Part shown: one piece after another, positions 1-26,675 of the stretch
How positions within the stretch are numbered: the stretch's first letter is position 1
How the letters are laid out: each line of letters starts with the position of its first letter
Source of the DNA: an uncultured Ardenticatenaceae bacterium
GTDB taxonomy: Bacteria; Chloroflexota; Anaerolineae; Promineifilales; Promineifilaceae
DNA length: 27,023 bases
Reading direction: 5' to 3'
Assembly: GCA_964429835.1 (NCBI GenBank)
Contig: CAYSDT010000001.1
Coordinates: forward strand, 1 to 27,023
Program-made: the position numbers and the translations under genes
Notes under the pieces: generated by a model
What the model saw: the letters and a program-made list of their open reading frames with translations, nothing else
Told to the model about the DNA's origin: nothing
Database searches by the model: none

Positions 1-3000
1 TCGGCACGTTCTTCTGTTTCGCTGAACAGACGGATATTTTCCAATGCGACGGACACATAATTGGCAACACCCACCAGCAAATCCATGTCAGATTCTTTGT
101 ATGCGTTGTACTGGTCACTTTGGCATGACAAAACGCCCAGTCGCTTTGTGCCTACTTGTAAAGCAACAAATAGCTTTGAAACAGAAGGATGCTGTGAAAT
201 ATCGCCAACCACAACAACTCCTGACTGATCTTGTTGCAATGCCTCTTCTGGTGTCAAATGCTGTAACAAGGGTCGGCCTGTTTGCAAAACCTGATAAGAA
301 GATGTCTCTGGCGTAATTGGTACTGGTAATGGGTGTTCGTGATATTGGCCGCCTTCAAAATTACTCACGATTGTTATCGCATTTAGTTCATCGTCATACA
401 GCCCTGCAAAAAAGGCATCTACGGGCATGATGGCTTGTATCCGCCGATAAACAACTTCAAGCATCTTTTCCATATCTGATTCTTGCGAAACAGCACTGGC
501 AATCTGATTGATTGTCGTCAATCGCTTTGCTTGGGCTTCGGTGGCGAAGAGGGCGCGTTGGGTTTCGTCTGTAAGGCGAAGGTTTTCGATGCGGGCGGTG
601 AGTTGGGCGGTAACGGCCGTTATAATTTCAGTCGTCTCTGCATCCCACTCCTCATCATCGTCATGCGAAAACAGGGCAAGATTACCGATTTTTTCGCCAT
701 AAACAAGCAAAGGATGGTCATATGCCGCCGTTTCCATTTCCTCTATTACATCCGCTCCCGCGCCACTGTCGTACACAAACGACAACTCTTGTGCCTGTGT
801 ATCCACATAAGAATCCCAGCCCTCGCGTGTCAGGCGGCGTGTCAATACATCTAATTCAGCCACAGCCTCTTCCGATTGCTCAAACAAGCGTGCATTTTGA
901 ATAGCAAAGCCGATCTGGCTACCGACAGCAGCCAACCACTCCACATCAGCATCACGTCCAGTCAGCACCTCTGTGCTAAACAGGCAAAGCGTACCTAATA
1001 CATCCCCGTGCGCCTGCATGGGAACACCCTGATACGCCTTATATCCCCGTGCCAATACGCCCGTAACATCAATCGGTGCGTATTCCGCCAAGTTTCCCAA
1101 CACAATCGGTTTATTGTCCTGGTAAACCAGATCGCAAAGCGTTCCATCAAGCCCGCCACTTGCGCCCAGAATTGCGGCCCATTCTTCTGGTAAACGGTAC
1201 GCTTGTAAGTCCAACGAATCAGTTTCCGTATTTACAATGCTAAACAGCCCTGATCCAAACCCAGTCGATGACAGCACTTGTTGCAACACCTCATCCAGCA
1301 CGGTTTCTAAATCTAATGTGCCGCTGGCTGTTTTGGTGATGGCAAGTAACGCCTCTGTTTCTGCCAATGCCCCTTGTGTTTCACGATATTGCTCTGCATT
1401 TTGCAAAGCAACGGCAATCTGCGAAGCCAACGTCGTTTGGATATTACGATCCTCTCTGGAGAAATAGTCAGTCTTGTCTGATTGAATATCCATCACACCC
1501 AACACATAGTCTCCAAGAATGATGGGAATCGCCATTTCCGCTTGTGTTTTAGGCAAATGCGGATTGGTCATATAATCAGGTCGCGTACGCACATCGTTCA
1601 CGGTAACGCCAGATTTCGTTCGTACTGATTCAGCAACGACCGAGTGGGGGTGGTCAAGCGCGATCTGGTGGTGTTCAGCAACCAACACCCTGCCCGCCTC
1701 ACCAGCACCAGCCATCAACACCATTTTGTCACCATCATCATTCATCAAATAAATGTGAGCATGATAATAACCAAAATGATCCTTGATCGTGTCGGATACA
1801 AGCTGCAACAACGGTTTTATTTCCATGATGGCTGAAATCGTGATGCTGATATCGGCTACTGCTTGTAAATTGACTGCATGTGCTTCAATTGCGGCTTCAA
1901 TGCGTTGGCGTTCAGTAATGTCACGGTTGTAAACGACAATGCCCGTCATTTCACCATCGTCACCATAAGTTGCCCGCGCCTTGCGCCATACCTTAACAAG
2001 GGAACCGTCTTTCCTGACGAGATCAGTTTCCACTTCTATATATCCTTCCTTTTTAAGTTTGGGGTACATTTTTTTGAACAGCCCCGCCCCTTCTGCGGTA
2101 AAGAATTTGGTGACATGCTGCCCAATCGCCTCATCCCGTTCGTAACCTAATGCTTGCAAATAAACATCATTACAATCCACCAAAAGGCCTTCTACACTCA
2201 CCAGTTCAATGGCATCGGCAGCGGCATCAAACAGTGTGCGATAACGTTCTTCACTGGCTTTTAGCGTCTCTCTGGCTTGCTTGCGTTCGCTAACATCTCG
2301 TTTTATGGCAACGAAATGGGTGATTTTATCCCCCATCGTCCGCACAGGGGTAATCGTCATCTCGTCTGTATAAAGCGAACCATCCTTGCGTCGGTTAATT
2401 ACTTCTTTTTGCCAAACACGGCCGTCTAAAACGGTATCCCACAGGTCTTTGTAAAAACCAGGCTCATGCTTCCCTGATTTCAAAACACGGGGATTGCCGC
2501 CGACTGCTTCTTCAAATGTATAGCCTGTTAATGTTGTAAATGCCGCATTCACCCATTGGATCGTGCCACCGATATTAGTGATGGCAACCCCTTCTAGTAT
2601 TGATTCCAGTGCGTAATTTTGTAATTGTAACTGCTCTCGTACATGTTTCCGTTCGCTAATATCTTGGGAAGATGCAACTAAACCAATCGGAACGCCATCC
2701 TCACCTTTTAACAAGGCAACAGCCATCCATGTTGGAAAAGTCGTGCCATCTTTATGTTTATGGCCTACTTCACCTTGATTGCTGCCTGTTTCTATAATTT
2801 TTTGATTGAATGGCTCTACTTCATTCTGTAATTGCTCTGGGGTATGGAATATAGTGAGCGGCTGGCCGATCAGTTCATCAACCTGATAGCCGTGCATTTT
2901 AGCCCATGCAGGGTTGATAAATTGGATATTACCTTCTAAGTCGGCAATAGCTGTTCCGTCGAGACTTTGTTCTATGGCGGCCACCAATCTTATCCATTGT

Positions 3001-3470
3001 ATTTCTTCATGTGATTCTATAGTGCAAGCTGTGGCGGCGATGGCAAGTTTATGAAACAACGGCCGTTTTTCCTCAATTTCCTCCTCCGACAATGGATCAC
3101 CCTTTTTCAACACGATCATGACCCCATAATCGGGCAAATCAAAGCCGTATTGATGGCTGTCTTCATGTTGATTAACAAATGCAAGCGTCTCCGTGCCTTG
3201 TTCCAACAGTGCTTCGGCTTGCTCCAGCGCAGTGCGGTAAGCGGCATTGCGCTTGATGCGCCCTTTGGTGTACTGCTCTTGCAATTGGGAATCTCCATTC
3301 CCCATCGCCACCCGCTGATACACCCCAAGAGAAGAGGCTGCCAACTGCTCGAAAAAGGCCGCCCCGCTCTCTGCTAACATCTGATGCAGATCAAGGCTGT
3401 TGCCAATCGACAGCGACAACTGATAAAGGGCTTCCACACGCTCTGTTTGTTTTGTGGTTGAATCACTCAT
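1..3470 (-). CDS. Soluble multi-PAS/multi-GAF sensor protein, 3' end truncated by window edge (>=1156 aa): degenerate GAF-like N-terminus, 3 PAS, GAF, GAF, Trp half-GAF module, GAF
   Basis: Hand translation from ATG at 3470 (MSDSTTKQTERVEALYQLSLSIGNSLDL...) is open to base 1 (...VSVALENIRLFSETEERA). PAS/PAC motifs include INPAWAKMHGY, VNAAFTTLTGY...NPRVLKSG, RKDG and DISERK/DVSERK/DITER. GAF motif FGYYHAHIYL...TQAEMAIPIILGDYVLGVMDIQS. Starts 14 nt after the stop of the upstream gene. Absent from the ORF track because it has no stop in the window. Confidence 0.92.
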   Translation of the reverse strand, partial: MSDSTTKQTERVEALYQLSLSIGNSLDLHQMLAESGAAFFEQLAASSLGVYQRVAMGNGDSQLQEQYTKGRIKRNAAYRTALEQAEALLEQGTETLAFVNQHEDSHQYGFDLPDYGVMIVLKKGDPLSEEEIEEKRPLFHKLAIAATACTIESHEEIQWIRLVAAIEQSLDGTAIADLEGNIQFINPAWAKMHGYQVDELIGQPLTIFHTPEQLQNEVEPFNQKIIETGSNQGEVGHKHKDGTTFPTWMAVALLKGEDGVPIGLVASSQDISERKHVREQLQLQNYALESILEGVAITNIGGTIQWVNAAFTTLTGYTFEEAVGGNPRVLKSGKHEPGFYKDLWDTVLDGRVWQKEVINRRKDGSLYTDEMTITPVRTMGDKITHFVAIKRDVSERKQARETLKASEERYRTLFDAAADAIELVSVEGLLVDCNDVYLQALGYERDEAIGQHVTKFFTAEGAGLFKKMYPKLKKEGYIEVETDLVRKDGSLVKVWRKARATYGDDGEMTGIVVYNRDITERQRIEAAIEAHAVNLQAVADISITISAIMEIKPLLQLVSDTIKDHFGYYHAHIYLMNDDGDKMVLMAGAGEAGRVLVAEHHQIALDHPHSVVAESVRTKSGVTVNDVRTRPDYMTNPHLPKTQAEMAIPIILGDYVLGVMDIQSDKTDYFSREDRNIQTTLASQIAVALQNAEQYRETQGALAETEALLAITKTASGTLDLETVLDEVLQQVLSSTGFGSGLFSIVNTETDSLDLQAYRLPEEWAAILGASGGLDGTLCDLVYQDNKPIVLGNLAEYAPIDVTGVLARGYKAYQGVPMQAHGDVLGTLCLFSTEVLTGRDADVEWLAAVGSQIGFAIQNARLFEQSEEAVAELDVLTRRLTREGWDSYVDTQAQELSFVYDSGAGADVIEEMETAAYDHPLLVYGEKIGNLALFSHDDDEEWDAETTEIITAVTAQLTARIENLRLTDETQRALFATEAQAKRLTTINQIASAVSQESDMEKMLEVVYRRIQAIMPVDAFFAGLYDDELNAITIVSNFEGGQYHEHPLPVPITPETSSYQVLQTGRPLLQHLTPEEALQQDQSGVVVVGDISQHPSVSKLFVALQVGTKRLGVLSCQSDQYNAYKESDMDLLVGVANYVSVALENIRLFSETEERA

Positions 3471-3484: not shown

Positions 3485-6151
3485 TTAGTTTAATTCCACG
3501 ACTGCTTTTTTAATTTTCAATGCACGACCTAACTCGGAAACGGCCGTTTTCATCGCCCCTTGCACCGTTTGCGCCCCTTGAATCTTCTGACTAATTTCGT
3601 TAATCAGCCGTTCACGCTCGGCACGTCTTTCCGTCGCTTCAAATTGGCGTACATTTTGTATGGCAATGCTGATCGATCCAGCCAATGTGACTAACAGACG
3701 TTGATCGTCCTCACCGTACCGTCGATTTTCATGGAAACTTTTAAGGGCAATCACACCAATCACCTCGCCAGCAGCCAACATCGGGACAGCTAAATAAGTG
3801 TCTGGAATACGCATGTCCCCTTCTAACACACCGCCCCGCGCCAAAAATTCTTCCTCTGCGCTCTCGTCATGGGTGCTGTTAAAAATAAGCGGCCGTTTTG
3901 TGCGAATCACTTCGGCCGTAAAACCACCGTTCTTATCAGCCAATCGGGATGGGATATGCTGTATGCCAACATCTGGGTTGTAAAAATAAGGAAAAACCAT
4001 CATTCGGGATGACGGGTTATACAAGGAAAAATAGATGCCTTTAGCCGCAAACGCTTCTTGCAAACGGGGTCCAATGCTCGCAAACAGCGTTGATAAATCA
4101 AGATGCGTAGAAACCATCTCGCTAATCTCATTCAGCAGGAGTAATTCTTCACTACGTTCTTCCGTCTGGCGCAAAGCGTCCTGTGTGGCCGTGAATAAAT
4201 TCAAGTTTTCCAACGCCAATCCAACATGATTAGCAATACCAAACAGCAGTGCAATATCCTCTTCGGTAAAATCGTGGAATTGGTAATTTTGCACCGACAT
4301 CACACCAATCGCCTTCGCCCCCGCCATCAGCGGAACAAAGGCCATGTTAGACGGCCGTTGATTTTCATCATCATCACCGCCAGTCAGCAATAAATTCTGA
4401 TCCTCCGTTTCCCTGTCCCAGAACTCCTCTGGTGTGTAGTTCACATAAATCGGCTTGCCGCTCTGCCAAACTTGTGTCGTCTCTACTTTCGGATCGACTC
4501 CCATAGGAGGAACATCGTGTATCACCTCATCATCATAGAAATAGGGGAAAATAAAATGCTTATGCGTTTCATCATACATCGCAATGAAAAAGGTGTCGGT
4601 GACAACAACACGGGCGACTTGTTCGTGAACGGCCGTAAACAGTTCGCCTTCACCAAGCTGTTGCGAAACGACCTGCGCCACCTCGTTGATGACCGCCAAC
4701 TGCTCGGCTCGCTTATCCAATTCCTGACGACCCAACTCAGTTGTCTCTAACAGCCGCGCCCGTTCCAGCGCGTCCGCTATCTGACGTGATAAGCCGTCCA
4801 GCAGTAGTTGCTCATCCGCCGTTAGTGGCTCGCCCGATGGGTTACGCACGTCCAAATAGCCAATCGTTTCCGATTGCACCGTCAGGGGGATGGAAACAGG
4901 AATATCAGCATCGGGGAAAACGGCCGTTTCTGGCATCGTCGCCGAATTCATATTCACAATGTCGCGTGCAATCGGCTGCACCTGTTCGTTATCGAACATA
5001 TAACCCCGAATCTGCCGCTCATCATCGGCCAAAAATGCTTGCCAATTTTCACGCGCCATCACCTGTTGTAATTTATTTAAGTTTTCTAACGCTTCTTGCC
5101 GTTGTTGATATTGACGCGCATTTTGAAGAGCAACGGCCGTTTGTGCCGCCAACAGCGTAAGGATACGCGCATCCTCCTCATCAAATTGCCCAACATCAGC
5201 CGCATGCATGTCCAAAACACCCAACAATTCATCGCCAACCAACATCGGTATAGCCAATTCACTGCGCGTATCTGGCAATAGTTCGTGCGCCATAAAATGG
5301 GCATCAAGCTGCACATCACTGCTTATAACACTGCGACGTGTTCGCGCCGCTCGTGCAACCAGCGACCGTTCCTGATGCAAAGAAATTGAAAGAACTGCAC
5401 GACTTTCAGCCGCCAACATCTGCTCGGCAGCAGAGCCAGCAACGGCCGTTAATGCCAACTTTTCTTGTACTACATCAAACAAAAAGATATGCGTATGATA
5501 CAAATCAAACCCATCACTTATTGATTCAACAACAGTATCCAACAGTTCACGCAAATCTAAAATAGCGGCTATATCTACACTAACCGTCGCCACCGTTTCC
5601 AACTCAACCGCCCGCTTCAACGCAAGTGCCTGCTCTTTTTCCAGATCAACAGCTAACTGGCGCTCACGTTCCATCCGCTCCTGCAATAAAATTTGCGAGC
5701 TTTTGTAATATAATTCCTGCTCGGTAAGCACCTCATTTAATCGTGCATCTATATAGCTTTGTAAAAACAATTGCCGATAATGATGAAGCGTTGCCTCCGC
5801 CCTTTCCCCCACTCCTTCCAGCATGACAACCGCTCGATCATGCAGCTTATCTATCAAAAGAACAGCGACCATAGGTGACAACCCATCACTCGCCAACGTT
5901 CGCACATGCGCCTGCAATTCTGGTTGAGAAATCTGTCCACTGACATATTGAATAAACACATCAATAATTTGCTGACTGGTCTTGGGAATATGGCGCATTG
6001 ATCCCAACGCGGCCGTATTATCAAAAATATGACGGCGTAATTCGCCTGCCATTAGTTCAATCAGCATATCCGTTTGAGCCGACAACTGTTCTATGCAAAT
6101 TGGTGATAAAACAGTCTCAGGGTTTCTCGATTGGGTCATTAGCGCACTCAT
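3485..6151 (-). CDS. Soluble GAF-domain protein (888 aa): helical N-terminal domain, GAF, Trp half-GAF module, 2 GAF, partial-GAF C-terminal tail
   Basis: GAF signatures TRSELAIPMLVGDELLGVLDMH, AFVPLMAGAKAIGVMSVQNY and YLAVPMLAAGEVIGVIAL, each followed by a Q/H..A.AL.N helix. No hydrophobic TM segment. No kinase, cyclase or phosphatase motif recognised. Confidence 0.92.
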   Translation of the reverse strand: MSALMTQSRNPETVLSPICIEQLSAQTDMLIELMAGELRRHIFDNTAALGSMRHIPKTSQQIIDVFIQYVSGQISQPELQAHVRTLASDGLSPMVAVLLIDKLHDRAVVMLEGVGERAEATLHHYRQLFLQSYIDARLNEVLTEQELYYKSSQILLQERMERERQLAVDLEKEQALALKRAVELETVATVSVDIAAILDLRELLDTVVESISDGFDLYHTHIFLFDVVQEKLALTAVAGSAAEQMLAAESRAVLSISLHQERSLVARAARTRRSVISSDVQLDAHFMAHELLPDTRSELAIPMLVGDELLGVLDMHAADVGQFDEEDARILTLLAAQTAVALQNARQYQQRQEALENLNKLQQVMARENWQAFLADDERQIRGYMFDNEQVQPIARDIVNMNSATMPETAVFPDADIPVSIPLTVQSETIGYLDVRNPSGEPLTADEQLLLDGLSRQIADALERARLLETTELGRQELDKRAEQLAVINEVAQVVSQQLGEGELFTAVHEQVARVVVTDTFFIAMYDETHKHFIFPYFYDDEVIHDVPPMGVDPKVETTQVWQSGKPIYVNYTPEEFWDRETEDQNLLLTGGDDDENQRPSNMAFVPLMAGAKAIGVMSVQNYQFHDFTEEDIALLFGIANHVGLALENLNLFTATQDALRQTEERSEELLLLNEISEMVSTHLDLSTLFASIGPRLQEAFAAKGIYFSLYNPSSRMMVFPYFYNPDVGIQHIPSRLADKNGGFTAEVIRTKRPLIFNSTHDESAEEEFLARGGVLEGDMRIPDTYLAVPMLAAGEVIGVIALKSFHENRRYGEDDQRLLVTLAGSISIAIQNVRQFEATERRAERERLINEISQKIQGAQTVQGAMKTAVSELGRALKIKKAVVELN

Positions 6152-6179
6152 AAGCTCTCTCTTATTTACGATTGTGCAG

Positions 6180-6214
6180 TAGAGTGGTTCAATCTTGAAG
6201 ATTGAACCACTCTA
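6180..6214. repeat. 35-bp near-perfect palindrome, GTAG-type REP-like
   Basis: TAGAGTGGTTCAATCTT-G-AAGATTGAACCACTCTA has 17-bp perfect arms and a 1-nt centre. G6179 makes the 5' end GTAG. Confidence 0.8.
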
Positions 6215-6367: not shown

Positions 6368-6396
6368 TTACTAACCATTGACCAGTATCAAAAGAA

Positions 6397-7329: not shown

Positions 7330-7501
7330 GTTAGTGTCATTAGTTATTCGCCACCTTTTGTACTCGGCAAATAAATTCGCTGCTACGATTGCAAAGTCGG
7401 TCTACACCGACTGAGAGCCAGACCGCGTAGGCGGTCTTCGCAATGAGTAGGCGCGGTTTTAACCGCCAGCCAACAAGTGGCTAATAATTCATGACACTAA
7501 C
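7330..7501. mobile_element. 172-bp MITE-like element with 25-bp TIRs, 7-bp target duplication and three internal hairpins
   Basis: Left TIR GTTAGTGTCATTAGTTATTCGCCAC versus right-end reverse complement GTTAGTGTCATGAATTATTAGCCAC (22/25). Direct repeat TAATTCT at 7323-7329 and 7502-7508. Internal hairpins AGTCGG-TCTACA-CCGACT, GACCGC-GTAG-GCGGTC and GCGGTT-TT-AACCGC. Confidence 0.75.
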
Positions 7502-10500
7502 TAATTCTCCGACTGTCCATTTTCTACTGACGCAAGCGCATCAGCTTCATCGGGTTCAGTCAAATAAACATAAGTTTGCCATCCCAATGCGCGTCCAATT
7601 TCTTGGGCGGCAATACGCAGGATGGATTCGGGGTCAACGGCCGTGTTGACCTGACTGCTAATTTCGCGCATGGTTTGCTCACGACGGGCGCGTTGCTGTG
7701 TGGCCTCAAACTGACGCACGTTCTGCACCGCTACACCAACTGTCCCCGCCAACGTGCCTAACAAGCGTTGATCATCTTCATTATAGATGCGTTGTCCCTC
7801 GCCATGATTCGAGCCGATGCCAATCGCACCTACAAGATCATCACCGACAATCATTGGTACACCCAAGAAAGAGTTAAGCGAAGTGGCGCGGTCGTCACCT
7901 AAACGGCCGCCTTGCGCGGTGTATTCGTCGGCAGACCTGCCTTCGCTGTTAAAAATGAACGGCTTGCGCGTCAAAATGACCCGCTCTGTAAAGCCGCCAT
8001 CCGCATCGGCGTGACGTGAGGGGACATCAAGATCGCCTTCCTCATCACTGTGGTAATAGGGGAAATCAATCCGCTCATCGGCTGGATCATACAGGGCAAA
8101 AAAGATGCTGGTGGCAGCTAATGCGCTCTGAATACGCTGCCCAGCAGTGCTAAACAGTGAATCCAAATCCAGTTGAGCAGATACAATTTCGCTGATTTCG
8201 TTGAGCAATGCCAATTCGGAGGCGCGTAAATCAAGGTTTTGCCGCCCTAGTTCGGTCACTTCCAACAATCGCGCCCGTTCCAGTGCCTCAGCGACTTGGC
8301 GTGCGGCTGATTCCAGCAATAGTTGCTGGTCGTCGCTCAGTGGCTCGCCAGATGGGTTGCGTGCGCTCAAGCCGCCGATGGTGATGCCTTGTACAGTTAA
8401 TGGGGAAACGGCCGTTTTTCCCTCCGCAAACACCTCATCATCACCCTGTTCAACCGCCTGTACCGTATGCTGATCGTACAGATACCCTTGCACAGTTCGG
8501 CTCTGATTGGTCATAAACGCTTCCCAGTTCTTGCGGGAGACAATCTGTTGTAATTGGGTTAAATCAGCCAACGCCTCTTGCGCTTCCTGATATTGCGCCA
8601 CATTTCGCAATGCGGCCGCGATCTGCGAAGCCAGCGTTAGCTGTACATTGATGTCAATGTCAGAGAAGTGGTTCAACTCATCGGAATGTAAGTTAATCAC
8701 ACCCAGTAATTCGCGGCCAAGAATCAGCGGTACGGCCAAAATGGCGCGGGTATCTGGCAAATCAGGCATGGCTATATAGCTTGGTTCAAGCTGCACGTCG
8801 TTGGCAAATAGGGCTTTGCGCTGATGGGCGGCGTGCGAAATAATGCAGGTTTGCTCATCTACAGATATGGTGGGCATATCGTCTGTGGAAGGATGGTTTT
8901 GGGGGTCAGAAACGGCCGTTAATCGCAACATCCGCGTCTGTTCATGCAGCATGAAAATCTGCACATGGTAAAGAGTAAATTTTTCCCGCATCGCGTCAGC
9001 CACAAATTGCAACATTTCATCACGGTTCATCAGACCAGCCGCCGAACGGCTGATTTCTGTCACCAGTTGCAGTTCACGCGCCTGTTTGGCAAACGTATTT
9101 GCCGTGCGCTTGCTCACGATAACATTTGCCAACGTATTGGCAAACAGCGACGTCAATTCTGGCTCATACACACGCATCGGCTTTTGGGAGAATAAATTAT
9201 CAACAGCCAGCCAGCCGATGGGCTGCTCGCCATCCAATAATACGGCCGCAATTTGCCAACCATGCCCGACAATGTCCCCTTCGTGACGCAGATCTAACGC
9301 AGGGCTTACCTGCCGCCCCTGCCGAATTTTCACGATGGATGCCGCCCATGAATCGGTAAATGGAATTTGGAAATGGTGGGCATCATACACGTTCCCATCT
9401 TGCCCCATTCCAAATGTTCCCATCATCAAATCGCGATCTTCGTCAATCAGCCACAATCGTATGCGATCAAACTGTAATTTTTCACGTCCAACGGCAACAG
9501 CCTGTTCATACATCAGTTCTAATGTATCCAAACCGCTCAAATCGGTGCTGATTTCATGGAGAAGTGTTAATTTAGCCTGAAAATCGCGGGCAGATTGTTC
9601 GCTGTTTCTCAGCGCCGTTGCCGCCGCATTACGCTCGGTGATGTCGCGCATGGTAATGCTGAATCCAGCCACATTGCCGTCAGCATCATAGTTAATGCCG
9701 ACCGTCTCTTCCACTGGTGTCAATGTTCCGCCCCGCACTTGCAACATCGCTTCTGTAGACCAACTGCCTTGCTCGATGGCAATCGGCAAGCCAACCTGCA
9801 TCAGTTTGGCCGCCTCTTCTGGCGCGTACAAGCTGCTGCTATTTATGCCAGAAATATCGTGGTCGGCTGGCAGTCCCATCATCTGTAGGCCAGATGGATT
9901 GATGTATAAGGCGTTGCCATCCAATGTGCCTACGCCAATAAAATCAGGGTGGTTTTCAACAATACCAGCCAACAATCGCGCTTGCTCGGCCAGTCGTTGG
10001 CTTTCAATGGTGACAGCTAACAAGCTGGAAATCTGAAGGATAAAGCCGACATCAATGGAACGGAAAGCATCTTTCTGTGTACTGCCGATATTAAGAACGC
10101 CAAAGGCGGTCACGCCCATAGAAAGCGGGGCGGTTATGACACTTTTGATATTGTTACTCTCCCATCGTCCGCTGTCGGCAAAGTCGGATAACGGCCGTTC
10201 ATCGGGCAAGCGTATCATTCTATTTTCAGTAACGGCCGTTCCAGCCACCGTTGCCGTCACTGGCAAAGATTTCCCAACAGCCACTGTCTCAGTCATCCCG
10301 CTCGTTGATACAACCTCAAGTTCTGTTCCCAAATCAGACAGAAGCAGAATCGCAACACGATCCGCCTTCATAAGTTCCATCACATGCGTTCCCGCAATGC
10401 GATACACATCTTCCAAGTTATTGGCGACCGTCAAAGATGCGCTTAACTCGTTTAATAACGAAAGATTGCGTGATTGCTGCTCACTGGCGGCCAATGTGTC

Positions 10501-19100: not shown

Positions 19101-20324
19101 ATATAAATAGTATCCATCTTCATCCACTAAATACGTCGTCACCTCACCTTCACCCAAAATATCCAAAAAATTCTGCGCCAACACATTGGTGACAAATACA
19201 CCTCGTGTTTCACCATTAAATTCTACTGGCGTACCATAACGAAGCATCGGCTTATACGGAATCTCAATCGCTCCATGTTCCACATTCAAATCGAGCGGCG
19301 AAATCATCAACTCACCTGACGATAATTGAATCGTGTCATCAAAATAGTAACGTCCCGACTTATTCTGCAAATCTACCGCCTCGGCAACAGAAATCACGCC
19401 ATCAGCACCACGATCAACCCGCGCGATCTCCTGCCCCGAAGCATCAATAAACCGAACCTGATCATATATTTGCCGCGTCTGGGCGATAATGCGTAATTCC
19501 TCATTCAAATGAAAAAGAGCTTCCTCAATCAATTCGGGGTCACCATCATCTACGGCTTCCAAATACGTTTGAACAACTAACGATTGTCCCAAAAATTGAA
19601 TGTCTGACTCGGTCGTACCTAAAAAGCTTTGTATCTCGCCTACCTTCCCATCACCGTCAAACAAGTTATGGATAACAATGTCGGCGTTTAGTTGGGTCGT
19701 GATTTGGGAAACAAAGAAAATACCAACAGCTGCCACAATCACAACGGGTATTGCCATAAGAACAACCAGCAATTTACTCCGTAGCTTTAGAAAACGATAT
19801 CGAATGCCAACAACTATCATCAGAATAATCGCGCCAATCCCCATCGCAATAATAGGTGTGGGAGATACCGTTGGTGTAGAACGCTCAACTGGCCCCCACC
19901 AATCCAACAGTACGGTAAAGATCATGAAAAGTGAGCCAATGATAATGAACGTGTTCGCCTTTTTCTCAGGCAATCCCTGTGTGGCAATAGCGATGATCAA
20001 CAACATCACCACCAAAGCAAATAGCGTTGCTCGCCCAGCAACCACAAAAGGAATACTCATCGTTGATGCCATCAACCCAATGAGAATAAGGCTGATGCCA
20101 AGTGATGACCGCCCCCGCCGACACAACCAAATGCTGACAAGTGCAGCAATTACGGTTGCGCCCATTGCAATGAGCGGCAACGCCCTCTGCCAGTCAGCAA
20201 GCCCATCCATCGTCAGCAAATTTCGCACTGCTCCCAGCCAAGCAACAGACATGATGACAGCAACGGATATTGATATCCAAAACGGTTCACGCGCCTGATT
20301 TGTAGTTATCTTTTGTTCACTCAT
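16191..20324 (-). CDS. Membrane sensor-like protein (1377 aa): ~6 TM, Cache-like domain, TM, HAMP, GAF, two Trp half-GAF modules, 2 GAF, partial-GAF tail
   Basis: TM-rich N-terminus. Cache-like YDQVRFIDASGQEIARVD...KSGRYYF...ISPLDLNVEHG...PMLRYGTPV. HAMP IANPIILLTTSAEEIAAGNL...DEIGALAQAFNEMA. GAF TRSEMVVPLMVGGQLIGTLNMQ. Confidence 0.93.
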   Translation of the reverse strand: MSEQKITTNQAREPFWISISVAVIMSVAWLGAVRNLLTMDGLADWQRALPLIAMGATVIAALVSIWLCRRGRSSLGISLILIGLMASTMSIPFVVAGRATLFALVVMLLIIAIATQGLPEKKANTFIIIGSLFMIFTVLLDWWGPVERSTPTVSPTPIIAMGIGAIILMIVVGIRYRFLKLRSKLLVVLMAIPVVIVAAVGIFFVSQITTQLNADIVIHNLFDGDGKVGEIQSFLGTTESDIQFLGQSLVVQTYLEAVDDGDPELIEEALFHLNEELRIIAQTRQIYDQVRFIDASGQEIARVDRGADGVISVAEAVDLQNKSGRYYFDDTIQLSSGELMISPLDLNVEHGAIEIPYKPMLRYGTPVEFNGETRGVFVTNVLAQNFLDILGEGEVTTYLVDEDGYYLYHPDEDKRWGRDLEMEITIVDDFPGLRDLLLAGKTGSLKTDLDLLTYQPVMIPSETSPRWYLANSISNTAVLAPVNAALAPGLAILAIALLLIPSLAIFFSQTIANPIILLTTSAEEIAAGNLDVTLDVESEDEIGALAQAFNEMAARLRTLVGSLELQVSQRTHGLELAAEIGSRLTQITDRRELLDTAVNLIGERFHLYYTQIYRVDALGKTLRIQAGTGLVGEELMRRAHYLPVGKGSINGVAAAEQTAVVVEDVRDDLMFRSNELLPYTRSEMVVPLMVGGQLIGTLNMQADQVGILTKSDLITFDVLASQLAIAWQNAELFGEREEVQSSIEAQSRLLTHENWDAYLDAVDRREHIAYRYDQIETKLLDEELTTLAAGENGMETAVLVNKEEVGSLQIVGLQDRVWTDGEQELLDLVAQQVGQRIENLRLLDETDRYRNEAERALRRMTREGWDSYQQQSEQALAHGYQYDGNEVTPFIEENVEEADSLESLKTAVSQSLVIGGQKIGSLSVEAENGIDGGTAVLLEQVAAQLSSHIEALRLENQTENALSMAQRRGHEMEQLNEIVAKISKTLDLQESLRIVAEELVSVLNIAQSSITLLDEARENLIITASYPAGADLEGLVIPIEGNLLTQRVLDTRQYAFVADAQSSPLTAVTHGIFRKENIQAVAVFPMIIGGELIGTVGLDIKTANTQFTEDQLRLAETIIAQAATTVQNARLFEQTEEALAEAKRRSEEMATVNRVAQIASQQVDVEPLLQAIYTEMKLLMDVGTFHIMLYNAETELMEYPLIYEQDVRTHQEPLPLHPDSYSYRVLQNGEPILNNLTAEEVVEDRKRGELFIGTNDNRETVSVMYAPLHTGQEVTGTLSIQSYNYDEYDETDLSLLVSIANYVAVALESARLFEQTRARARQERLLREVSERVHTAVDAETVLQTAAREINRLLGVDVYAYLENTAETASTSNGGQS

Positions 20325-20450: not shown

Positions 20451-22841
20451 CTAAGATTTATTTCTATTGATTTCCGCAATTGCTTGTTGCACACCCAACG
20501 ATTCACCCAATTCATGGGCGGCAATATGCAACACACTATCCACATCCGTCGCCATCTGAATTTTCTGCCCGATGAGGTTGGCGGTCGCTTCCCGATCTGC
20601 CCGCTCGCGAATATCCTGATACAGGTAGATGTTTCGTAGAGCAACGGCCGTTTGGTTAGCAACCGATTGCAACAAGTGCATATCATCCTCACCCAACCCC
20701 CCGACCTCATTATGTTGAACATCCAGCACGCCCAACACATCCTCTGTAGTAAATGCGATTGGAATCGCCGCCTCAGAGCGCGTATCAGGAAGCAATGAAT
20801 TCGGCTGCCACTCATCATCTTGCAACGTGTCGGCGATCAAAATCGCCTCATTATTCACGGCCGCACGCCCAACCAAACCAACGCCCACCGGCATCTTATG
20901 CCCGCCGCTCATCATGCTCAAGCCAGCCTCACCAGAGCCGCCAACCATATTCAGCTCATTTAATTCCTGATCAAGCAGATAAATTTGCACATAGTAATAC
21001 CCAAACGTCGCCTGCGTCACCTCTACCACCTCAGCAACCAATCGTTCCTGATCGAGGATGGTAGAAATATCACGGCTAATTTCAAGTGTTGTTGCCAATG
21101 CCAGCGTCCGTTCTGCTACACGATCTTCCAGTCCAGACATCGTGTGCTGAATTTCATCAGCCATATTATTAAATGTAACCGTCAACTGACCGATCTCATC
21201 TTTGGTTGTCACCTCTGCCCGTGCATCCAAATCACCAGAAGCCACCGCTTGGGTTGCCTCAATCAATCCTGTAATCGGACGAATAAGCACACGGCCGAAG
21301 AGAGCAACCACAATCGAAGAGATTGCCAACGCGGTCAACCCCAACACAATCAATCCCCGCTGCTGTTCATCCACAGGTTCTAAACTGGCCGCAAGCCCCT
21401 CTTGAGCGACAACTGTCCAGCCCAAATCAGCGATAATTGGTAAATTGGCAGAGGTACGCAAATCAACCTGACTGACCAACTGGGAACTATCGGCAAATTC
21501 AACAATGGCGTAAGAGTCATCTTTCACCGCCGCCAACAGTTCAACCGTTTCTGGTGATAAATCAAGTGTAGAAAAAGTAGTCGCATCCAAAAGTTGATCA
21601 CCAGGTAACAGCAATCCTAACTGACCTGTTTCACCCAAACCATCTTCGGCTGCCAGCAATGCAGCACGCAAATCACGCAAACTGTATGTTGCATGCAATG
21701 CACCAATTACACGACGAGAACTGCGCTCAAGGAGAGGGATGGCGATATCCACGTTAATCACGCGATTCACCGCGTCTACCTGTGGATCACTGATATACGT
21801 CAATCCACCAAAAACAACAGGCCACCACTCTTCGTCGCTATGATCGTAATGCTCAGTGCGGTTTGTGCTGGAAACCAACACACCACGTTTATCAACAATA
21901 AATGTCTCTGAGTAGGCGGGGAATGAGCGGCGAAATTGAGATAATTCTACAGCCAGCGTATTGTTCAACACTTGTTGAATCAGCGGGTCTGTAAAATCAG
22001 CCGTATGCCACGCTTCATCTTCTTCTGTTACTTTGTCAGCAATTTCTGTTGCTGTCTGCCCCAGATATTCATCATTATGTGTTTGTAATATCGACTGGAA
22101 AGCGTTATTAAAGCTGAACGCTTGCATCAGGCTAACTTGTTGGGCAAGTAAATCCCCGATATTTGCCGCTTGTATGTCAGCTACGCCATACAATGTATTG
22201 CCGACTGCGGTGGTAATGGTTTTGCTGGTGCTATTGCCAATAAAGAAAACAACACCCACGACTGCTCCTGTTATGACCAACACATTGGTAACAAACAGTT
22301 TGACGAGCAAGCTATAACTTGGGAAACGACGGATAGCAAAGTAAATAGCTACTAACATGCTGCCGAGTAAAAGCAGTGGCACAATAATATCTAATGGAGG
22401 AGGCAAGGGGGTGCGTGCATACGGCCAAAACAGGTCTAGCAATACCAGGCCAATGGCTAATGCAACGTCAGCAATCGTTCCCCAAATCAAATACTGGGGG
22501 AGTGTTTGTGACACAATAACGGCCGTTAATACGAAACTGACAACCGCCAACATCAATCCAATATCCAGTAACTGTATAGTGATACCATATACCGAAATCC
22601 AAATGATTACGATAATTAATACGCTGCCAATGGCAACACGGCCGTTTCTAATCAGCCATATATTTATCACCGCCACAATAAATATCATCGTTGGCAACAA
22701 TGTCTTTACGAAATCCTGATCCCCTAGCAAGCGTACCACAAAAGAAGCCACGCTTAACACCAGTGTCGTGACAAGGATGACGATGCCGATACGCAACGCA
22801 CGCGCCTTTAGTTCTGCTGCATCCACCGTAGGCTCTATCAT
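20451..22841 (-). CDS. Membrane sensor-like protein (796 aa): ~6 TM, dCache-like domain, TM, HAMP, GAF, partial-GAF tail
   Basis: TM-rich N-terminus. Cache-like TFIVDKRG...DEEWW...YISDPQVD. HAMP LIRPITGLIEATQAVASGDL...DEIGQLTVTFNNMA. GAF FGYYYVQIYLLD...TRSEAAIPI. ATGA overlap with the upstream gene and GGAGG 7 nt before the start. Confidence 0.93.
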   Translation of the reverse strand: MIEPTVDAAELKARALRIGIVILVTTLVLSVASFVVRLLGDQDFVKTLLPTMIFIVAVINIWLIRNGRVAIGSVLIIVIIWISVYGITIQLLDIGLMLAVVSFVLTAVIVSQTLPQYLIWGTIADVALAIGLVLLDLFWPYARTPLPPPLDIIVPLLLLGSMLVAIYFAIRRFPSYSLLVKLFVTNVLVITGAVVGVVFFIGNSTSKTITTAVGNTLYGVADIQAANIGDLLAQQVSLMQAFSFNNAFQSILQTHNDEYLGQTATEIADKVTEEDEAWHTADFTDPLIQQVLNNTLAVELSQFRRSFPAYSETFIVDKRGVLVSSTNRTEHYDHSDEEWWPVVFGGLTYISDPQVDAVNRVINVDIAIPLLERSSRRVIGALHATYSLRDLRAALLAAEDGLGETGQLGLLLPGDQLLDATTFSTLDLSPETVELLAAVKDDSYAIVEFADSSQLVSQVDLRTSANLPIIADLGWTVVAQEGLAASLEPVDEQQRGLIVLGLTALAISSIVVALFGRVLIRPITGLIEATQAVASGDLDARAEVTTKDEIGQLTVTFNNMADEIQHTMSGLEDRVAERTLALATTLEISRDISTILDQERLVAEVVEVTQATFGYYYVQIYLLDQELNELNMVGGSGEAGLSMMSGGHKMPVGVGLVGRAAVNNEAILIADTLQDDEWQPNSLLPDTRSEAAIPIAFTTEDVLGVLDVQHNEVGGLGEDDMHLLQSVANQTAVALRNIYLYQDIRERADREATANLIGQKIQMATDVDSVLHIAAHELGESLGVQQAIAEINRNKS

Positions 22842-24631
22842 TCTGCATCCTCCAACGAAACATGCCCATTCCCATTAAACATATCGGCATCATCTGGTTT
22901 TGTTATTCCAAAATCAGCTAACTGCACCGTTGCTTGCCCCGACCCAACAGAACGCCCAACCTCGCGTACTGCAATTTGCAATGCACGCTCCACTGTCGTT
23001 GCCTGCTGAATTTTCTGGTTAATTTCATTGATACGCGCCTGTTGGTCAGCCATTTCCCGTGTATCTGCATACAAGCGGGCATTTCGCAGGGCGATGGCAA
23101 CTTGATTAGCGATGGATTGCAGCACACGAATATCTTCATCACGGATACTACCTGCGGCATCCTGCTGCACATCTAACACGCCCAACAGCACATCACCAAC
23201 AGAAATAGGAACGGCCGCTTCTGATTTCGTCTCTGGCAGTAAGGGGTTATGGAACCAGTTTTCATCCTCAGTCACATCGGCGGCAACGATGGGCGTATTT
23301 GTTTCTGCCACCCGTCCCACCATCCCTGCGCCCAGCGCAATGGCTCGCCCTTGTGCCAACATAACGCGCCCCGCATCACCCGTGCCGCCAGCCAGCATCA
23401 ACATATCGCCACTCTTGTCTAGCAGATAAATGTGAACATGGTAGTAGCCAAATGTTTCCTGAATTTGTTCAACAACTTCTTTAACTAACTCTTCTTGCGT
23501 CAATATGGTTGACAGGCGGCGACTAACTTCGATACTGGATTCTAATGCTTGTGTGCGGGCAACAACGCGCTGTTCCAAATCATCAATTAGCACCTGTATA
23601 TGCGCGGTCATTTCATTCATCGCAACCGCAAGCGTTGAAATCTCTTTAGGGCCGTCCAACGGGGCTTGTGCGGCAAAATCGCCATCTTGAATTTTAACGG
23701 CCGTTTCTTCCAATGCTGTAATCGGCTCCGTAATGCGATTAACGACAAAAATACTGACGACAACCGCCACCACAATTATCAACACAATCACCCCCGCTAA
23801 TAATAGCGCGGCCATTACCGTTTCCTGCTGTGTCAATGCCGACAAACTCTCTACCACTACATTAAACGCCCTAAATTTCAACTTCATATCGGCCGTAGAA
23901 ACAAAAGAGGGTTCACCAAACAAACCCGCATAACGGCCATCTTCCTCTGGAGGTGTAAATGTCATTCCCTCCAATACCACATCCTTGTCCATATGGGCGA
24001 TCACGCGATCACGCACATCAACAACGTAAATGCTTATCCCCTCTTGCACAGGCACTTCAGACAGGAAACTCCATATCGTTGAAAAATCAACCTCTGCCAC
24101 CAACACGCCCGTCCCCCATCCCGTTTCAGGATCAATTAACGGATGTGAGATCAGCATAGTCGGCTTACCGCTCTCTTCATCTAGTTGCGCGTCACCATAA
24201 TGCGTATCTAAGGTGAGCAACGGTTGAGCATAAATGGGATCAGAGCGATCCCACGCTTCTCCATTCATTGGCGAAACAACTCCATCCAAAGAGACGTAAG
24301 CAAGCTCTTCCGCATTCCGATCAAGCAATGTCAACGAGCGAAAAGCGTCGTTATGCGTTAAAAGATGTTCCAGAGCCACTTCCTGCTCGGCCTCATCCAT
24401 CGCTGTCAAATTCTGTACCTTCGACAAAAACGCCATTTCATCGGTAATGGTAGATACAAAATTGTCAACTTGCACGGCAACACGCTGCGCCAACACTTGC
24501 TGCAAAGCAAGCGCGTCATCCTCCCGTGCGACCATATTACGCGGCACCAACACAGCGACGATGATCAGCAAGGGAGCGATAGACATGGCGATATAAGAAA
24601 ATAATAGTTGAGTGCGAATGCTCTTAAACAT
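22838..24631 (-). CDS. Membrane sensor-like protein (597 aa): TM, dCache-like domain, TM, HAMP, GAF, partial-GAF tail; first gene of the array
   Basis: Two TM segments flank the Cache-like region (FRSLTLLDRNAEE...HPL...GVLVAEVD...YVVDVRDRVIAH). HAMP ITEPITALEETAVKIQDGD...EISTLAVAMNEMT. GAF FGYYHVHIYLLD...TKSEAAVPISVGDVLLGVLDVQ. Confidence 0.93.
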   Translation of the reverse strand: MFKSIRTQLLFSYIAMSIAPLLIIVAVLVPRNMVAREDDALALQQVLAQRVAVQVDNFVSTITDEMAFLSKVQNLTAMDEAEQEVALEHLLTHNDAFRSLTLLDRNAEELAYVSLDGVVSPMNGEAWDRSDPIYAQPLLTLDTHYGDAQLDEESGKPTMLISHPLIDPETGWGTGVLVAEVDFSTIWSFLSEVPVQEGISIYVVDVRDRVIAHMDKDVVLEGMTFTPPEEDGRYAGLFGEPSFVSTADMKLKFRAFNVVVESLSALTQQETVMAALLLAGVIVLIIVVAVVVSIFVVNRITEPITALEETAVKIQDGDFAAQAPLDGPKEISTLAVAMNEMTAHIQVLIDDLEQRVVARTQALESSIEVSRRLSTILTQEELVKEVVEQIQETFGYYHVHIYLLDKSGDMLMLAGGTGDAGRVMLAQGRAIALGAGMVGRVAETNTPIVAADVTEDENWFHNPLLPETKSEAAVPISVGDVLLGVLDVQQDAAGSIRDEDIRVLQSIANQVAIALRNARLYADTREMADQQARINEINQKIQQATTVERALQIAVREVGRSVGSGQATVQLADFGITKPDDADMFNGNGHVSLEDAE

Positions 24632-24819: not shown

Positions 24820-25226
24820 GTGGCGATGGAATTTTTACGGTTTTGAACAAGGCGGGACAAATGGGTGGCGTACACGGCAAACAAACGGCCGTTTTCGCCA
24901 ATCGCTCTTTTTCGTATGAATTTATTCAGTAAGGTATCAACGCTATTCATATGTTCAGTTTCCCGTTTTTAATCAATGCTAAACGGCCGTTAGGTCAGTG
25001 CAAAACCAGTTTCTTGCACAACCCAAATCGGGTATAAAACACCCTCCACCCACATAAAACATTCGACTGATATGATAGCACAAAACCAGCTATCTAACGT
25101 GAACAATCCGTAGAAGAACAGGGGGTAAAGCAGGCGACAGTCCAATGGGGTACAAAAGTACCATGCAAAAAACCGCTTAACAGCGTCGTCTACCAGATAA
25201 ATTGTTTGATACTACAATAAAAAATA

Positions 25227-26675
25227 CTACTCTTGCAACGCTTGCGTCAACAACGTATTGACCAAGCGCGGATTCGCTTTGCCTCTGGTCGCTTTCATCA
25301 CTTGCCCGACAAAAAAGCCGCGCACTTTCATGTTGCCGCCACGATAAGCGGTGACAGAATCCGCATTATCGGCCAAAATCTCGGCAATAACGGCCGTTAA
25401 TGCCGCTTCGTCCGAAATTTGGGAAAGCCCCTTTGATTCTACGATGAAAACGGCCGTTTTGCCCGACTTAAACATCTCATCCAGCACCTCACGGCCACTG
25501 TTTTGGTTGATGGTCTGTTTCGTAATCAAGCCCAACAGTTCCACCAACCCTGCGGGGGTGATGGGATTCGCGTCAATTGACAGTTTGGCTTCGTTCATCA
25601 AACGGAATAAATCGTTGATAATCCAGTTGGCGATCATCTTGGGGGTGATGGATGGATCGGCAGCCGCAGAAATAGCAGCCTCAAACCAAGTCGCTACCCC
25701 AATCTCATCCGCCAGTACATCGGCATCATAAGCTGACAGCCCAAAATCAGATTGGTAGCGTGCCAGTTTAACGTCGGGGAGTTCAGGAAGGGTGTGGGAA
25801 ACGGCCGTTATCCATTCCGCATCCAAAAACAGCGGCGGCAAATCAGGCTCATCAAAATAGCGATAATCTTCCGCCTCTTCCTTCGCCCGCTGGCTGAATG
25901 TGATGCGTTTTGTGTCATGCCAGCCGCGTGTCTCTTGCACGACTGCACCGCCAGCACGCAAAATCTTTTCCTGTCGCACAATCTCGTAAGCCGAACCATC
26001 GGCCAATGCGCGGAAGCTGTTCAAATTTTTCAACTCAGTGCGCGTACCAAATGTCGTCGTTCCCGCAGGGCGTAAGCTGATATTAGGTTCAACGCGCAGT
26101 ACACCTTTCTCCATATCGCCTGAATTAACACCCAAATAGCGCAAAATACGACGGATTTTCATCCCATACGCCCGCGCCTCTTCACCAGAATGAATATCTG
26201 GCTCAGAAACAATCTCCAGCAACGGCACGCCCGCACGGTTGTAATCCACGAGAGAATGCCCATCTTCATGCGTCAATTTACCCGTGTCCTCTTCCATATG
26301 AACCCGACGAATCCGAATCCGCTTCGTTTCGCCAGCTTCCGTCTCGATGTCCAGCCACCCGTTCAGCCCAATCGGCTGTTCGTACTGGGTAATTTGATAC
26401 GCCTTCGCCAAATCGGGGTAAAAGTAGTTTTTACGCGAAAACACATTATGCGGTTGCACTTCGCAGTTCAACGCCAACGCCACTTTCATCGCATATTCAA
26501 TCGCCCGCCGATTGATGACGGGCAACATGCCGGGCATACCCAGACAAACAGGACAAACGGCCGTGTTTGGCGGCGCAGTCACACTGTCCACCACGCGGCA
26601 GCCACAAAACATTTTGGAATTGGTCATCAACTCGGCATGAATTTCCAAGCCGATAATCGGTTCATATGTAATCAT
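25227..26675 (-). CDS. gatB: Asp-tRNA(Asn)/Glu-tRNA(Gln) amidotransferase subunit B
   Basis: Hallmark motifs IGLEIHAEL...[57 protein letters not shown] and C-terminal [16 protein letters not shown]. 482 aa. Confidence 0.98.

Follow-up and report, generated by a model that had tools for sequence, protein, structure and literature searches.

A highly iterated palindrome built on CGGCCG in the Ardenticatenaceae (Chloroflexota)

In this work we analysed a window of 27,023 nucleotides (contig CAYSDT010000001.1, from an uncultured Ardenticatenaceae bacterium) that carries 29 exact copies of AACGGCCGTT, a perfect 10-base palindrome with the hexamer CGGCCG at its core. We found that this decamer is the form taken here by a highly iterated palindrome (HIP) of the Ardenticatenaceae, a family of filamentous Chloroflexota (order Ardenticatenales). 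The explanation that best accommodates the observations as a whole, to which we give a probability of about 0.5, is a family-level HIP combined with a putative methyltransferase that would read it and use it as a mark of self.

The copies lie between positions 612 and 25809 at a density of about one per kb, exactly where a first-pass annotation of the window had placed them, while 100 dinucleotide-preserving shuffles yielded 0.02 copies on average and never more than one. In a k-mer census of the window, AACGGCCGTT ranks top among the palindromic 10-mers, and it forms the longest of three nested words (CGGCCG, n = 52; ACGGCCGT, n = 38; AACGGCCGTT, n = 29). CGGCCG is the sole enriched palindromic hexamer, with observed/expected ratios of 7.7 and 4.9 under Markov models of order 1 and order 3, respectively. 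About 94% of the window is coding, with all nine coding sequences (CDS) on the minus strand, and 27 of the decamers fall within genes, three of them in gatB. The remaining two, at 24884 and 24982, are intergenic, again in agreement with the first-pass annotation, and the density of copies in non-coding DNA is similar to that in coding DNA. Local spacing could not be distinguished from random placement (coefficient of variation 0.87 versus 0.93 ± 0.18), and Rfam gave no match in the window. The sequences surrounding different copies are on average 33% identical, which is the level expected by chance, so the copies cannot be fragments of some longer repeat or of GAF domains that have been duplicated.

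Among the 27 coding copies, 24 are read in the frame xxA-ACG-GCC-GTT, encoding Thr-Ala-Val (TAV), two are read as Arg-Pro and one as Asn-Gly-Arg; each of the three frames is thus used, as had been claimed, albeit very unequally. TAV is the most frequent tripeptide in the proteins of the window (33 versus 4.6 expected from composition), while the counts of its permutations VAT, ATV and TVA match expectation. One explanation of the decamer would be selection for Thr-Ala-Val in the proteins, a codon preference, or recent duplication of GAF repeats, and both the dominance of the TAV frame and the presence of some copies at equivalent ends of GAF domains (e.g. QTAVALQ and QTAVALR) would be in line with this. 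However, shuffling synonymous codons with the proteins kept intact gave a mean of 0.53 and a maximum of 4 decamers, and shuffling codon order a mean of 0.04, versus the 27 observed in CDS. A single codon triplet, ACGGCCGTT, encodes 30 of the 33 TAV tripeptides, although ACG, GCC and GTT each make up only 29–38% of their own codon families in the window, and in 24 of these 30 the codon just before has A as its last base, ATA, TTA and GGA being among those used. Given also the intergenic copies, the copies in the two other frames, the chance-level similarity of the flanks and the occurrence of the motif in gatB and in unrelated genes on many contigs, such an explanation has next to no chance of being correct. 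We regard protein-level selection as excluded, as is an assembly artefact, by the shuffles, the flank identity, the non-coding density and the independent assemblies described below. The signal acts at the DNA level, as first proposed, and the pressure runs from DNA to protein and not in the reverse direction.

The window contains 11 one-mismatch variants of AACGGCCGTT, and every one of them is changed at one of the two outer positions. The first-pass annotation had noted many such variants around CGGCCG; they are indeed present, but none has a single change inside the core. The outer A-to-C variants (CACGGCCGTT) each come after a codon for Asn or Asp, and no such codon has A in its last position. 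A similar picture emerged from 51 copy-rich metagenome contigs, a set that still included tandem-repeat artefacts such as contig L085: next to 411 exact decamers, each class of single change in the core was represented 0–6 times, which is roughly the chance level, and the classes of change at the outer positions 5–38 times. We also observed a weak, symmetric preference for A at position −3 (50–55%), and the two half-sites are nearly independent of each other. A hard 6-bp core with soft symmetric flanks is the pattern expected of an enzyme or a dimeric protein that reads duplex DNA. A broader specificity for YGGCCR, of the EaeI/CfrI type, was rejected, as TGGCCA is itself avoided.

A search of public assemblies for a protein identical to the GatB of the window gave no match. 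Among species-representative genomes, the closest GatB protein belongs to an uncultured Ardenticatenaceae metagenome-assembled genome (MAG; 74% identity), followed by those of Promineifilaceae (65–67%). When 81 gatB loci from many phyla were ranked by the observed/expected ratio of CGGCCG, the four Ardenticatenales among them took ranks 1–4. The number of CGGCCG sites in CDS exceeded that in synonymous shuffles in locus L001 (98 versus 24 ± 4), L002 (46 versus 21 ± 4) and L009 (26 versus 15 ± 3), and no excess over such shuffles was seen in the CDS of other Chloroflexota. L001 has no decamers at all, its 99 CGGCCG sites having nearly arbitrary flanks. Relatives with GatB proteins 95%, 84% and 83% identical to that of the window, which we found by protein search, carry the decamer at about one copy per kb, and genes of relatives situated past the end of the window contain 15 decamers in 9.3 kb. 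We also scanned metagenome contigs for pairs of decamers 15–45 bases apart and obtained at least 120 stretches. Among the matches listed, about 47 contigs were left once tandem-repeat artefacts had been removed, with 40–61% G+C and 0.8–7.7 decamers per kb, mostly 1–3. The false positives L085 (5152–5635), L087, L133 and L154 were recognised by their flank similarity as tandem repeats containing the decamer by chance; L085, for example, is a low-GC contig with repeated units encoding TTAVIG. One of the richest contigs, L168 (32 copies in 14.7 kb, 59% G+C), encodes a protein with 100% identity to one from an NCBI MAG that bears the name Anaerolineales bacterium, and with 97% identity to one under the name Ardenticatenaceae bacterium. 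The enrichment is therefore not confined to one locus, being found in unlinked genes of the 95% relative, in the 83–84% relatives, in the metagenome contigs, and in genomes that carry the names Ardenticatenaceae and Candidatus Leptofilum; nor does it stem from a particular assembly, since independent JGI, NCBI, ENA and Logan assemblies of relatives share the density of about one per kb.

The enrichment is graded between lineages, with CGGCCG 5–8 times over expectation in all Ardenticatenaceae loci that were sampled. In the clade of the window, CGGCCG has an observed/expected ratio of 7–8 and 60–84% of half-sites have AA. In Candidatus Leptofilum and two Ardenticatenaceae MAGs the ratio is 5–6.4, with A at position −1 in 77–85% of half-sites and AA in about 46%. 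L001, at 7.9, and the Promineifilaceae, at 3.1, have no flank preference. The Ardenticatenales genome GCA_020634515.1 is not enriched (0.3), and the other Chloroflexota sampled have ratios of about 1 or below. By lineage, the flank preference thus runs from none through A...T (ACGGCCGT) and AA...TT (AACGGCCGTT) to a weak AAA...TTT. Relatives, high-GC lineages and viral contigs likewise have TAV as their top tripeptide. Because the enrichment is graded across the named genomes sampled, the trait is a family-level feature of the Ardenticatenaceae, with lineage dialects on a fixed CGGCCG core and a weaker form in Promineifilaceae.

The three gatB decamers allowed us to see how copies arise. In gap-free alignments to relatives, all three were made by amino-acid replacements and none by an insertion or deletion; at the ITAVS site, for instance, a Glu-to-Thr replacement (IEAVR or IERVR in relatives) produced the decamer. 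A further site encodes the phylum-wide motif PNTAVCP, where nearly all of the Ardenticatenales gatB genes that we examined have CGGCCG. Across relatives with 65–95% GatB identity, the gatB sites are shared in a nested, clade-consistent manner, with gains as well as losses. As for maintenance, we compared the window with L201, the relative with 95% GatB identity. The two agree at 85% of nucleotides around gatB and at about 71% within the sensor genes. Of 13 window copies, 8 are identical in L201, compared with 1.86 expected from how well all other 10-mers are conserved in the same alignments (P = 1e-4), and intergenic copy 24884 is among those conserved despite a flank identity of only 62%. Copies have spread by point substitution, not by insertion, and existing copies are passed on and by far outlast the sequence around them. 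In coding DNA they occupy frames that the proteins tolerate, mostly Thr-Ala-Val and often at variable residues, and the imprint on the proteome predicted from the window alone is borne out by the TAV excess together with the replacements that created the gatB sites.

The abundance of CGGCCG stands against a background of severe palindrome avoidance. For 56 testable palindromic hexamers of the window the median observed/expected ratio is 0.10, with 25 of them absent, compared with a median of 0.95 for non-palindromic hexamers. Almost every palindromic hexamer except CGGCCG is strongly avoided in the motif-carrying lineages (the window, L201, L203, L205, L001 and L168): GGGCCC, TGGCCA and AGGCCT are nearly absent, CGATCG is found 3 times versus 25 expected in the lineage of the window, and the tetramer CCGG 6 times in the window versus 83 expected. 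GGCC outside the core is likewise depleted in the window (8 versus 53, against a null that is somewhat too high since the codons of the motif itself are redistributed in it), which we read as part of the general palindrome avoidance and not as a separate link to the motif. This avoidance implies a very heavy and varied restriction pressure in the lineage. As a separate observation, L008 (Chloroflexi bacterium CFX2, SZPK01000001.1) has 6 GGCC sites in called genes versus about 96 expected from codon shuffles, a classical tetramer avoidance that is unrelated to the palindrome enrichment.

Restriction-modification genes were found on several contigs. A cassette consisting of a cytosine-5 methyltransferase, whose closest solved structure over its full length is M.HaeIII, and a BsuBI/PstI-family endonuclease forms a low-GC island in two different genomic contexts within the Ardenticatenales (Table 1). 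On the motif-rich IMG/VR contig L224 (8317–10738), an MvaI/BcnI-family endonuclease and an N4/N6 DNA methyltransferase adjoin an IS1595 transposase. Low-GC cassette islands hold 3–5 times fewer copies of the motif than their surroundings. We considered the M.HaeIII-like methyltransferase of contig L143 as a reader of the palindrome and rejected it, since it has relatives in many phyla and lies in a low-GC island that is poor in copies. The cassette is not the cause of the enrichment, because it is present also in an Ardenticatenales genome that lacks it.

A scan of IMG/VR for double decamers gave 17 stretches. Seven motif-rich loci from six IMG/VR contigs (L210, L211, L214, L222, L223, L224 and L226) contain 369 CGGCCG sites versus 51 expected, an excess of about 7 times, and about 0.5–1.4 decamers per kb, which is a host-like density. 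They avoid the same palindromes (median 0.42). Clear phage genes are present in two of the loci, a tape-measure protein in one, and a terminase with a head protease/major head protein in the other, and copies sit inside these structural genes; Thr-Ala-Val is again the top tripeptide. Whatever makes or selects the motif acts also on phage-like mobile genomes, possibly prophages.

If the motif had no function and were merely over-produced by a bias of mutation or repair in certain contexts, e.g. by very-short-patch repair coupled to a cytosine methyltransferase, the bias would be expected to hit every replicon and so would fit the phage-like contigs. In E. coli, very-short-patch repair enriches the methyltransferase target CCWGG. 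The C-to-T variants that deamination would create from CGGCCG (TGGCCG, CGGCTG and CGGTCG) are, however, not depleted relative to other Chloroflexota, and we found no signature of very-short-patch repair, which we consequently rejected as the main cause. A 5–8 fold excess of the hexamer and one of about 1000-fold for the decamer are also far above known effects of this repair, many copies required several substitutions including amino-acid replacements, and the flank preference lies outside any deamination context. We thus give a by-product of this kind only a slim chance.

In the HIP literature that we consulted, all cases described come from cyanobacteria. The HIP1 core CGATCG is a Type II site, too, and has a solitary methyltransferase; some lineages extend it to 10-mers, and selection conserves it (PMC4390886; PMC5861425). 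In HIP1, the long-range spacing is quasi-periodic, at 18–94 kb. The motif described here shares with HIP1 (GCGATCGC) and the other cyanobacterial HIPs that it is a short palindrome present at roughly 0.5–3 copies per kb, exceeding expectation by tens to hundreds of times (PMC4390886; PMC5861425), in coding DNA in all frames as well as in non-coding DNA, without an explanation in codon use. Shared properties are also a spread driven by substitution, copies conserved beyond controls, a 6-bp core that is a Type II site, a symmetric extension to 8–10 bp in some lineages, and relatives that lack the motif. It differs in its core, CGGCCG instead of CGATCG (GCGATCGC itself is not the word here), in its phylum, in flank preferences that, inside a single family, form a nested series from hexamer up to decamer, in the exceptional avoidance of other palindromic hexamers, and in its host-like density on phage-like contigs. 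The analogy to HIP1 drawn by the first-pass annotation therefore holds for every HIP property that could be tested: the motif is a member of the HIP class, but not HIP1 itself. It is a new HIP, from outside the cyanobacteria, and full-text searches of the literature brought up neither this word nor any other HIP in Chloroflexota, the matches being primers or unrelated.

We also compared the motif with other dispersed or short motifs. CGGCCG is exactly the target of EagI, XmaIII and Eco52I, and the genomes show the palindrome avoidance that restriction pressure produces, but Type II restriction targets are normally avoided, whereas this one is enriched 5–8 times. Like repetitive extragenic palindromic (REP) elements and miniature inverted-repeat transposable elements (MITEs), the motif is dispersed, palindromic and numerous; unlike them, it is 10 bp long with unconserved flanks, 27 of the 29 copies are in genes, and no insertions or deletions accompany it. 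Polar motifs such as Chi and the FtsK-orienting polar sequences (KOPS) differ in that a palindrome is the same on both strands and cannot carry polarity.

Which activity might read the motif? Because the signal has two-fold symmetry, soft flanks and a hard 6-bp core that coincides with a Type II site (EagI/XmaIII), we infer a symmetric reader of duplex DNA that would act on CGGCCG. Our tentative candidate, which we hold somewhat short of even odds, is a solitary CGGCCG cytosine methyltransferase with lineage-specific flank kinetics, whose methylated sites would mark resident DNA as self. A methyltransferase is preferred because the core is a Type II site, as in HIP1, because the flanks look kinetic, and because of the restriction pressure and the involvement of all replicons. 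Sites would be retained either through selection against their loss, or because changes that destroy a site would be corrected by methyl-directed repair more often than changes that create one, and the process would act on any replicon resident in the cells, phages included. The mark might then serve in the acceptance or integration of incoming DNA, in strand discrimination during repair, or in protection from nucleases.

Several observations weigh against this explanation. Maintenance by methylation-linked repair, as suggested in the first-pass annotation, would in the form of very-short-patch repair be expected to deplete the deamination variants, which as described above are not depleted. 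Single-change variants at hexamer positions 2 and 3 of the core are not drained either, which speaks against a simple mutational ratchet, because such a ratchet predicts draining. No CGGCCG methyltransferase was found on the contigs analysed, which are stretches of 27 kb or less, and the M.HaeIII-like enzyme of L143, the only cytosine-5 methyltransferase on a copy-rich contig, does not track the trait. Our evidence as a whole comes from stretches of this size. Lastly, a graded preference over 10 to 12 bp is equally expected from a dimeric DNA-binding protein.

This last point leads to the possibility that the motif forms an array of binding sites for an abundant dimeric protein, nucleoid-associated or chromosome-organising, each site being under weak selection. 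The two-fold symmetric, graded preference over 10–12 bp with half-sites that are close to independent would suit such a protein, as would the conservation of sites within coding as well as non-coding DNA, and a structural role has been proposed for HIP1 on the basis of its periodicity (PMC5861425). Yet the local spacing of the copies is random-like, phages would have no evident need for such sites, and no candidate protein is known. Palindromic sites such as matS, SBS (SlmA-binding sites), NBS (Noc-binding sites) and parS number tens per genome, not thousands, which also argues against an array. All in all, we find it improbable.

The main rival to a methyltransferase reader is that the motif serves natural transformation, as a sequence for DNA uptake or for the recognition of self, comparable to the DNA uptake sequence (DUS) of Neisseria or the uptake signal sequence (USS) of Pasteurellaceae. 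A surface or periplasmic receptor would prefer DNA with the motif, and biased uptake followed by recombination would act as a molecular drive in which methylation is optional. The density of about one per kb, the lineage dialects on a common core, the location of copies in tolerant frames and at variable protein residues, which fits the imprint on the proteome, and the depletion of low-GC, recently acquired islands are all features in common with DUS and USS, and the conservation of copies between relatives would be expected as well. On the other hand, known uptake sequences are asymmetric words, and the two-fold symmetry of a perfect palindrome with symmetric extensions has no role in this model; there is no excess of the motif in terminator-like inverted pairs; and its host-like density in the structural genes of phage-like contigs is not predicted, unless these are old prophages. 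Nor is competence known in Ardenticatenaceae. On balance we consider uptake doubtful as the origin of the motif, while noting that it and a methyltransferase are compatible, because the effect of HIP1 on transformation depends on methylation; uptake/self-recognition is indeed the current proposal for the role of HIP1.

A more far-reaching variant would be if the palindrome were a density-coded identity tag, that is, if the frequency of CGGCCG on a molecule, probably in methylated form, were read as self. Tagged DNA would be spared from nucleases or accepted for recombination, other palindromes would have been purged under restriction pressure, and phages would be mimics that took over the tag in their structural genes. 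We think this unlikely, but if true it would amount to self/non-self discrimination by a sequence word that arose independently in Chloroflexota and cyanobacteria.

The positions of the decamers, of the remaining CGGCCG cores and of selected genes are collected in Table 1. Positions 3–24631 of the window are largely taken up by six consecutive genes for giant proteins (597–1755 amino acids, one partial) consisting of sensor modules only (dCache, HAMP, PAS and multiple GAF domains), the partial one being the product of CDS 3..3470, and Pfam recognises no output domain in any of them. The arrangement of sensor genes downstream of gatB is kept in Ardenticatenaceae relatives (L201 and L227–L229). 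The region 6152–7500, comprising a Methyltransf_19 gene and its flanks, has the lowest GC content of the window (43%) and no CGGCCG, falls inside the longest decamer-free gap (5441 to 8407) and may be recently acquired DNA. Within it, nested hairpins are predicted in an intergenic stretch on the minus strand (7355–7475; −46.9 kcal/mol, z = −3.4). This element matches metagenome contig L127 (2160–2267) in both orientations with 77–80% identity, has no match in Rfam, and may be REP-like or terminator-like.

Table 1. Decamers, other CGGCCG cores and selected genes. Coordinates refer to the window unless a contig is given; flanking residues are in one-letter code, and L201 is the relative with 95% GatB identity.
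Feature	Coordinates	Location	Details
Partial sensor gene	3..3470	minus strand	
272-aa Methyltransf_19 gene	within 6152-7500	minus strand	
gatB	25227..26675	minus strand	
AACGGCCGTT	612..621	partial CDS 3..3470 (minus)	TAV frame, EIITAVTAQ
AACGGCCGTT	3058..3067	CDS 3..3470	Arg-Pro frame, EEKRPLFH
AACGGCCGTT	3539..3548	CDS 3485..6151	TAV frame, AMKTAVSEL
AACGGCCGTT	4919..4928	CDS 3485..6151	TAV frame, MPETAVFPD
AACGGCCGTT	5132..5141	CDS 3485..6151	TAV frame, AAQTAVALQ, end of GAF domain
AACGGCCGTT	5441..5450	CDS 3485..6151	TAV frame, LALTAVAGS
AACGGCCGTT	8407..8416	CDS 7501..12768	TAV frame, EGKTAVSPL
AACGGCCGTT	8911..8920	CDS 7501..12768	TAV frame, LRLTAVSDP
AACGGCCGTT	10190..10199	CDS 7501..12768	Arg-Pro frame, PDERPLSD
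AACGGCCGTT	10231..10240	CDS 7501..12768	TAV frame, VAGTAVTEN
AACGGCCGTT	11161..11170	CDS 7501..12768	TAV frame, LTETAVAIA
AACGGCCGTT	12514..12523	CDS 7501..12768	TAV frame, MAITAVTIY; Ile before TAV is an ATA codon
AACGGCCGTT	12871..12880	CDS 12775..16191	TAV frame, VLKTAVKEV
AACGGCCGTT	13662..13671	CDS 12775..16191	Asn-Gly-Arg frame, TENGRLQI
AACGGCCGTT	14983..14992	CDS 12775..16191	TAV frame, NNATAVIYI
AACGGCCGTT	15262..15271	CDS 12775..16191	TAV frame, DMETAVSPT
AACGGCCGTT	17121..17130	CDS 16191..20324	TAV frame; missing at orthologous position in L201
AACGGCCGTT	17517..17526	CDS 16191..20324	TAV frame; identical in L201, flanks 68% identical
AACGGCCGTT	17601..17610	CDS 16191..20324	TAV frame; TACAACTGTT in L201
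AACGGCCGTT	17931..17940	CDS 16191..20324	TAV frame; identical in L201, flanks 58% identical
AACGGCCGTT	18345..18354	CDS 16191..20324	TAV frame; AACGTCCGTT in L201
AACGGCCGTT	20643..20652	CDS 20451..22841	TAV frame; identical in L201
AACGGCCGTT	22518..22527	CDS 20451..22841	TAV frame; AACGTCTGTT in L201
AACGGCCGTT	23696..23705	CDS 22838..24631	TAV frame; identical in L201
AACGGCCGTT	24884..24893	intergenic, gatB / 597-aa sensor gene	inside 12-base palindrome AAACGGCCGTTT; identical in L201, flanks 62%
AACGGCCGTT	24982..24991	intergenic	GATTGCCGTT in L201
AACGGCCGTT	25389..25398	gatB	LTAVI; relatives LVALI, LAEIV or LAAVI; common to L201 only
AACGGCCGTT	25449..25458	gatB	KTAVF; relatives RSPQQ, QNPSA or KAAET; common to L201, L203, L205
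AACGGCCGTT	25800..25809	gatB	ITAVS; relatives IEAVR or IERVR; common to L201, L203, L205
CGGCCG core, CACGGCCGTT	7638..7643		N-TAV
CGGCCG core, CACGGCCGTT	12903..12908		N-TAV
CGGCCG core, CACGGCCGTT	18533..18538		D-TAV; full decamer in L201
CGGCCG core, CACGGCCGTT	18893..18898		N-TAV
CGGCCG core, CACGGCCGTT	26558..26563	gatB	encodes conserved PNTAVCP; preceded by Asn codon
CGGCCG core, TACGGCCGTT	4630..4635		F-TAV
CGGCCG core, other flanks GACGGCCGTG	2419..2424		
CGGCCG core, other flanks AACGGCCGCT	3890..3895		
CGGCCG core, other flanks TACGGCCGAA	3913..3918		
CGGCCG core, other flanks AACGGCCGTC	4352..4357		
CGGCCG core, other flanks TACGGCCGCG	6010..6015		
CGGCCG core, other flanks GGCGGCCGTT	7904..7909		
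CGGCCG core, other flanks CGCGGCCGCA	8613..8618		
CGGCCG core, other flanks TGCGGCCGTA	9243..9248		
CGGCCG core, other flanks CACGGCCGAT	11631..11636		
CGGCCG core, other flanks AACGGCCGAT	13695..13700		
CGGCCG core, other flanks AACGGCCGCC	16286..16291		
CGGCCG core, other flanks GGCGGCCGAA	18590..18595		
CGGCCG core, other flanks TGCGGCCGTG	20858..20863		
CGGCCG core, other flanks TTCGGCCGTG	21292..21297		
CGGCCG core, other flanks AACGGCCGTG	22639..22644		
CGGCCG core, other flanks AGCGGCCGTT	23212..23217		
CGGCCG core, other flanks TACGGCCGAT	23890..23895		
Restriction-modification cassette	10143-12251	contig L143	M.HaeIII-like + BsuBI/PstI-family
Restriction-modification cassette	6722-8699	contig L208	M.HaeIII-like + BsuBI/PstI-family
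Restriction-modification cassette	6529-8506	contig L209	M.HaeIII-like + BsuBI/PstI-family
Restriction-modification cassette	10001-12133	contig L207	M.HaeIII-like + BsuBI/PstI-family

For three decades HIP1 has gone without an explanation, and work on it has stayed within the cyanobacteria, where every correlation is confounded by shared ancestry; an independent word in a different phylum removes that confound. The Ardenticatenaceae and their relatives provide a natural series of lineages, from those not enriched, through those that have the hexamer only and those that have the octamer, to those that have the decamer, together with motif-bearing phage-like contigs and motif-poor acquired islands. 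This series permits comparative tests for methyltransferases, repair factors, competence pili and DNA-binding proteins that co-vary with the motif in both phyla. As a strong compositional marker, the motif can be used in metagenomes from wastewater and sediment to bin Ardenticatenaceae contigs and to link phages with these hosts. How far a process at the DNA level can reach into the protein sequences of these bacteria is illustrated, finally, by the sevenfold excess of Thr-Ala-Val.

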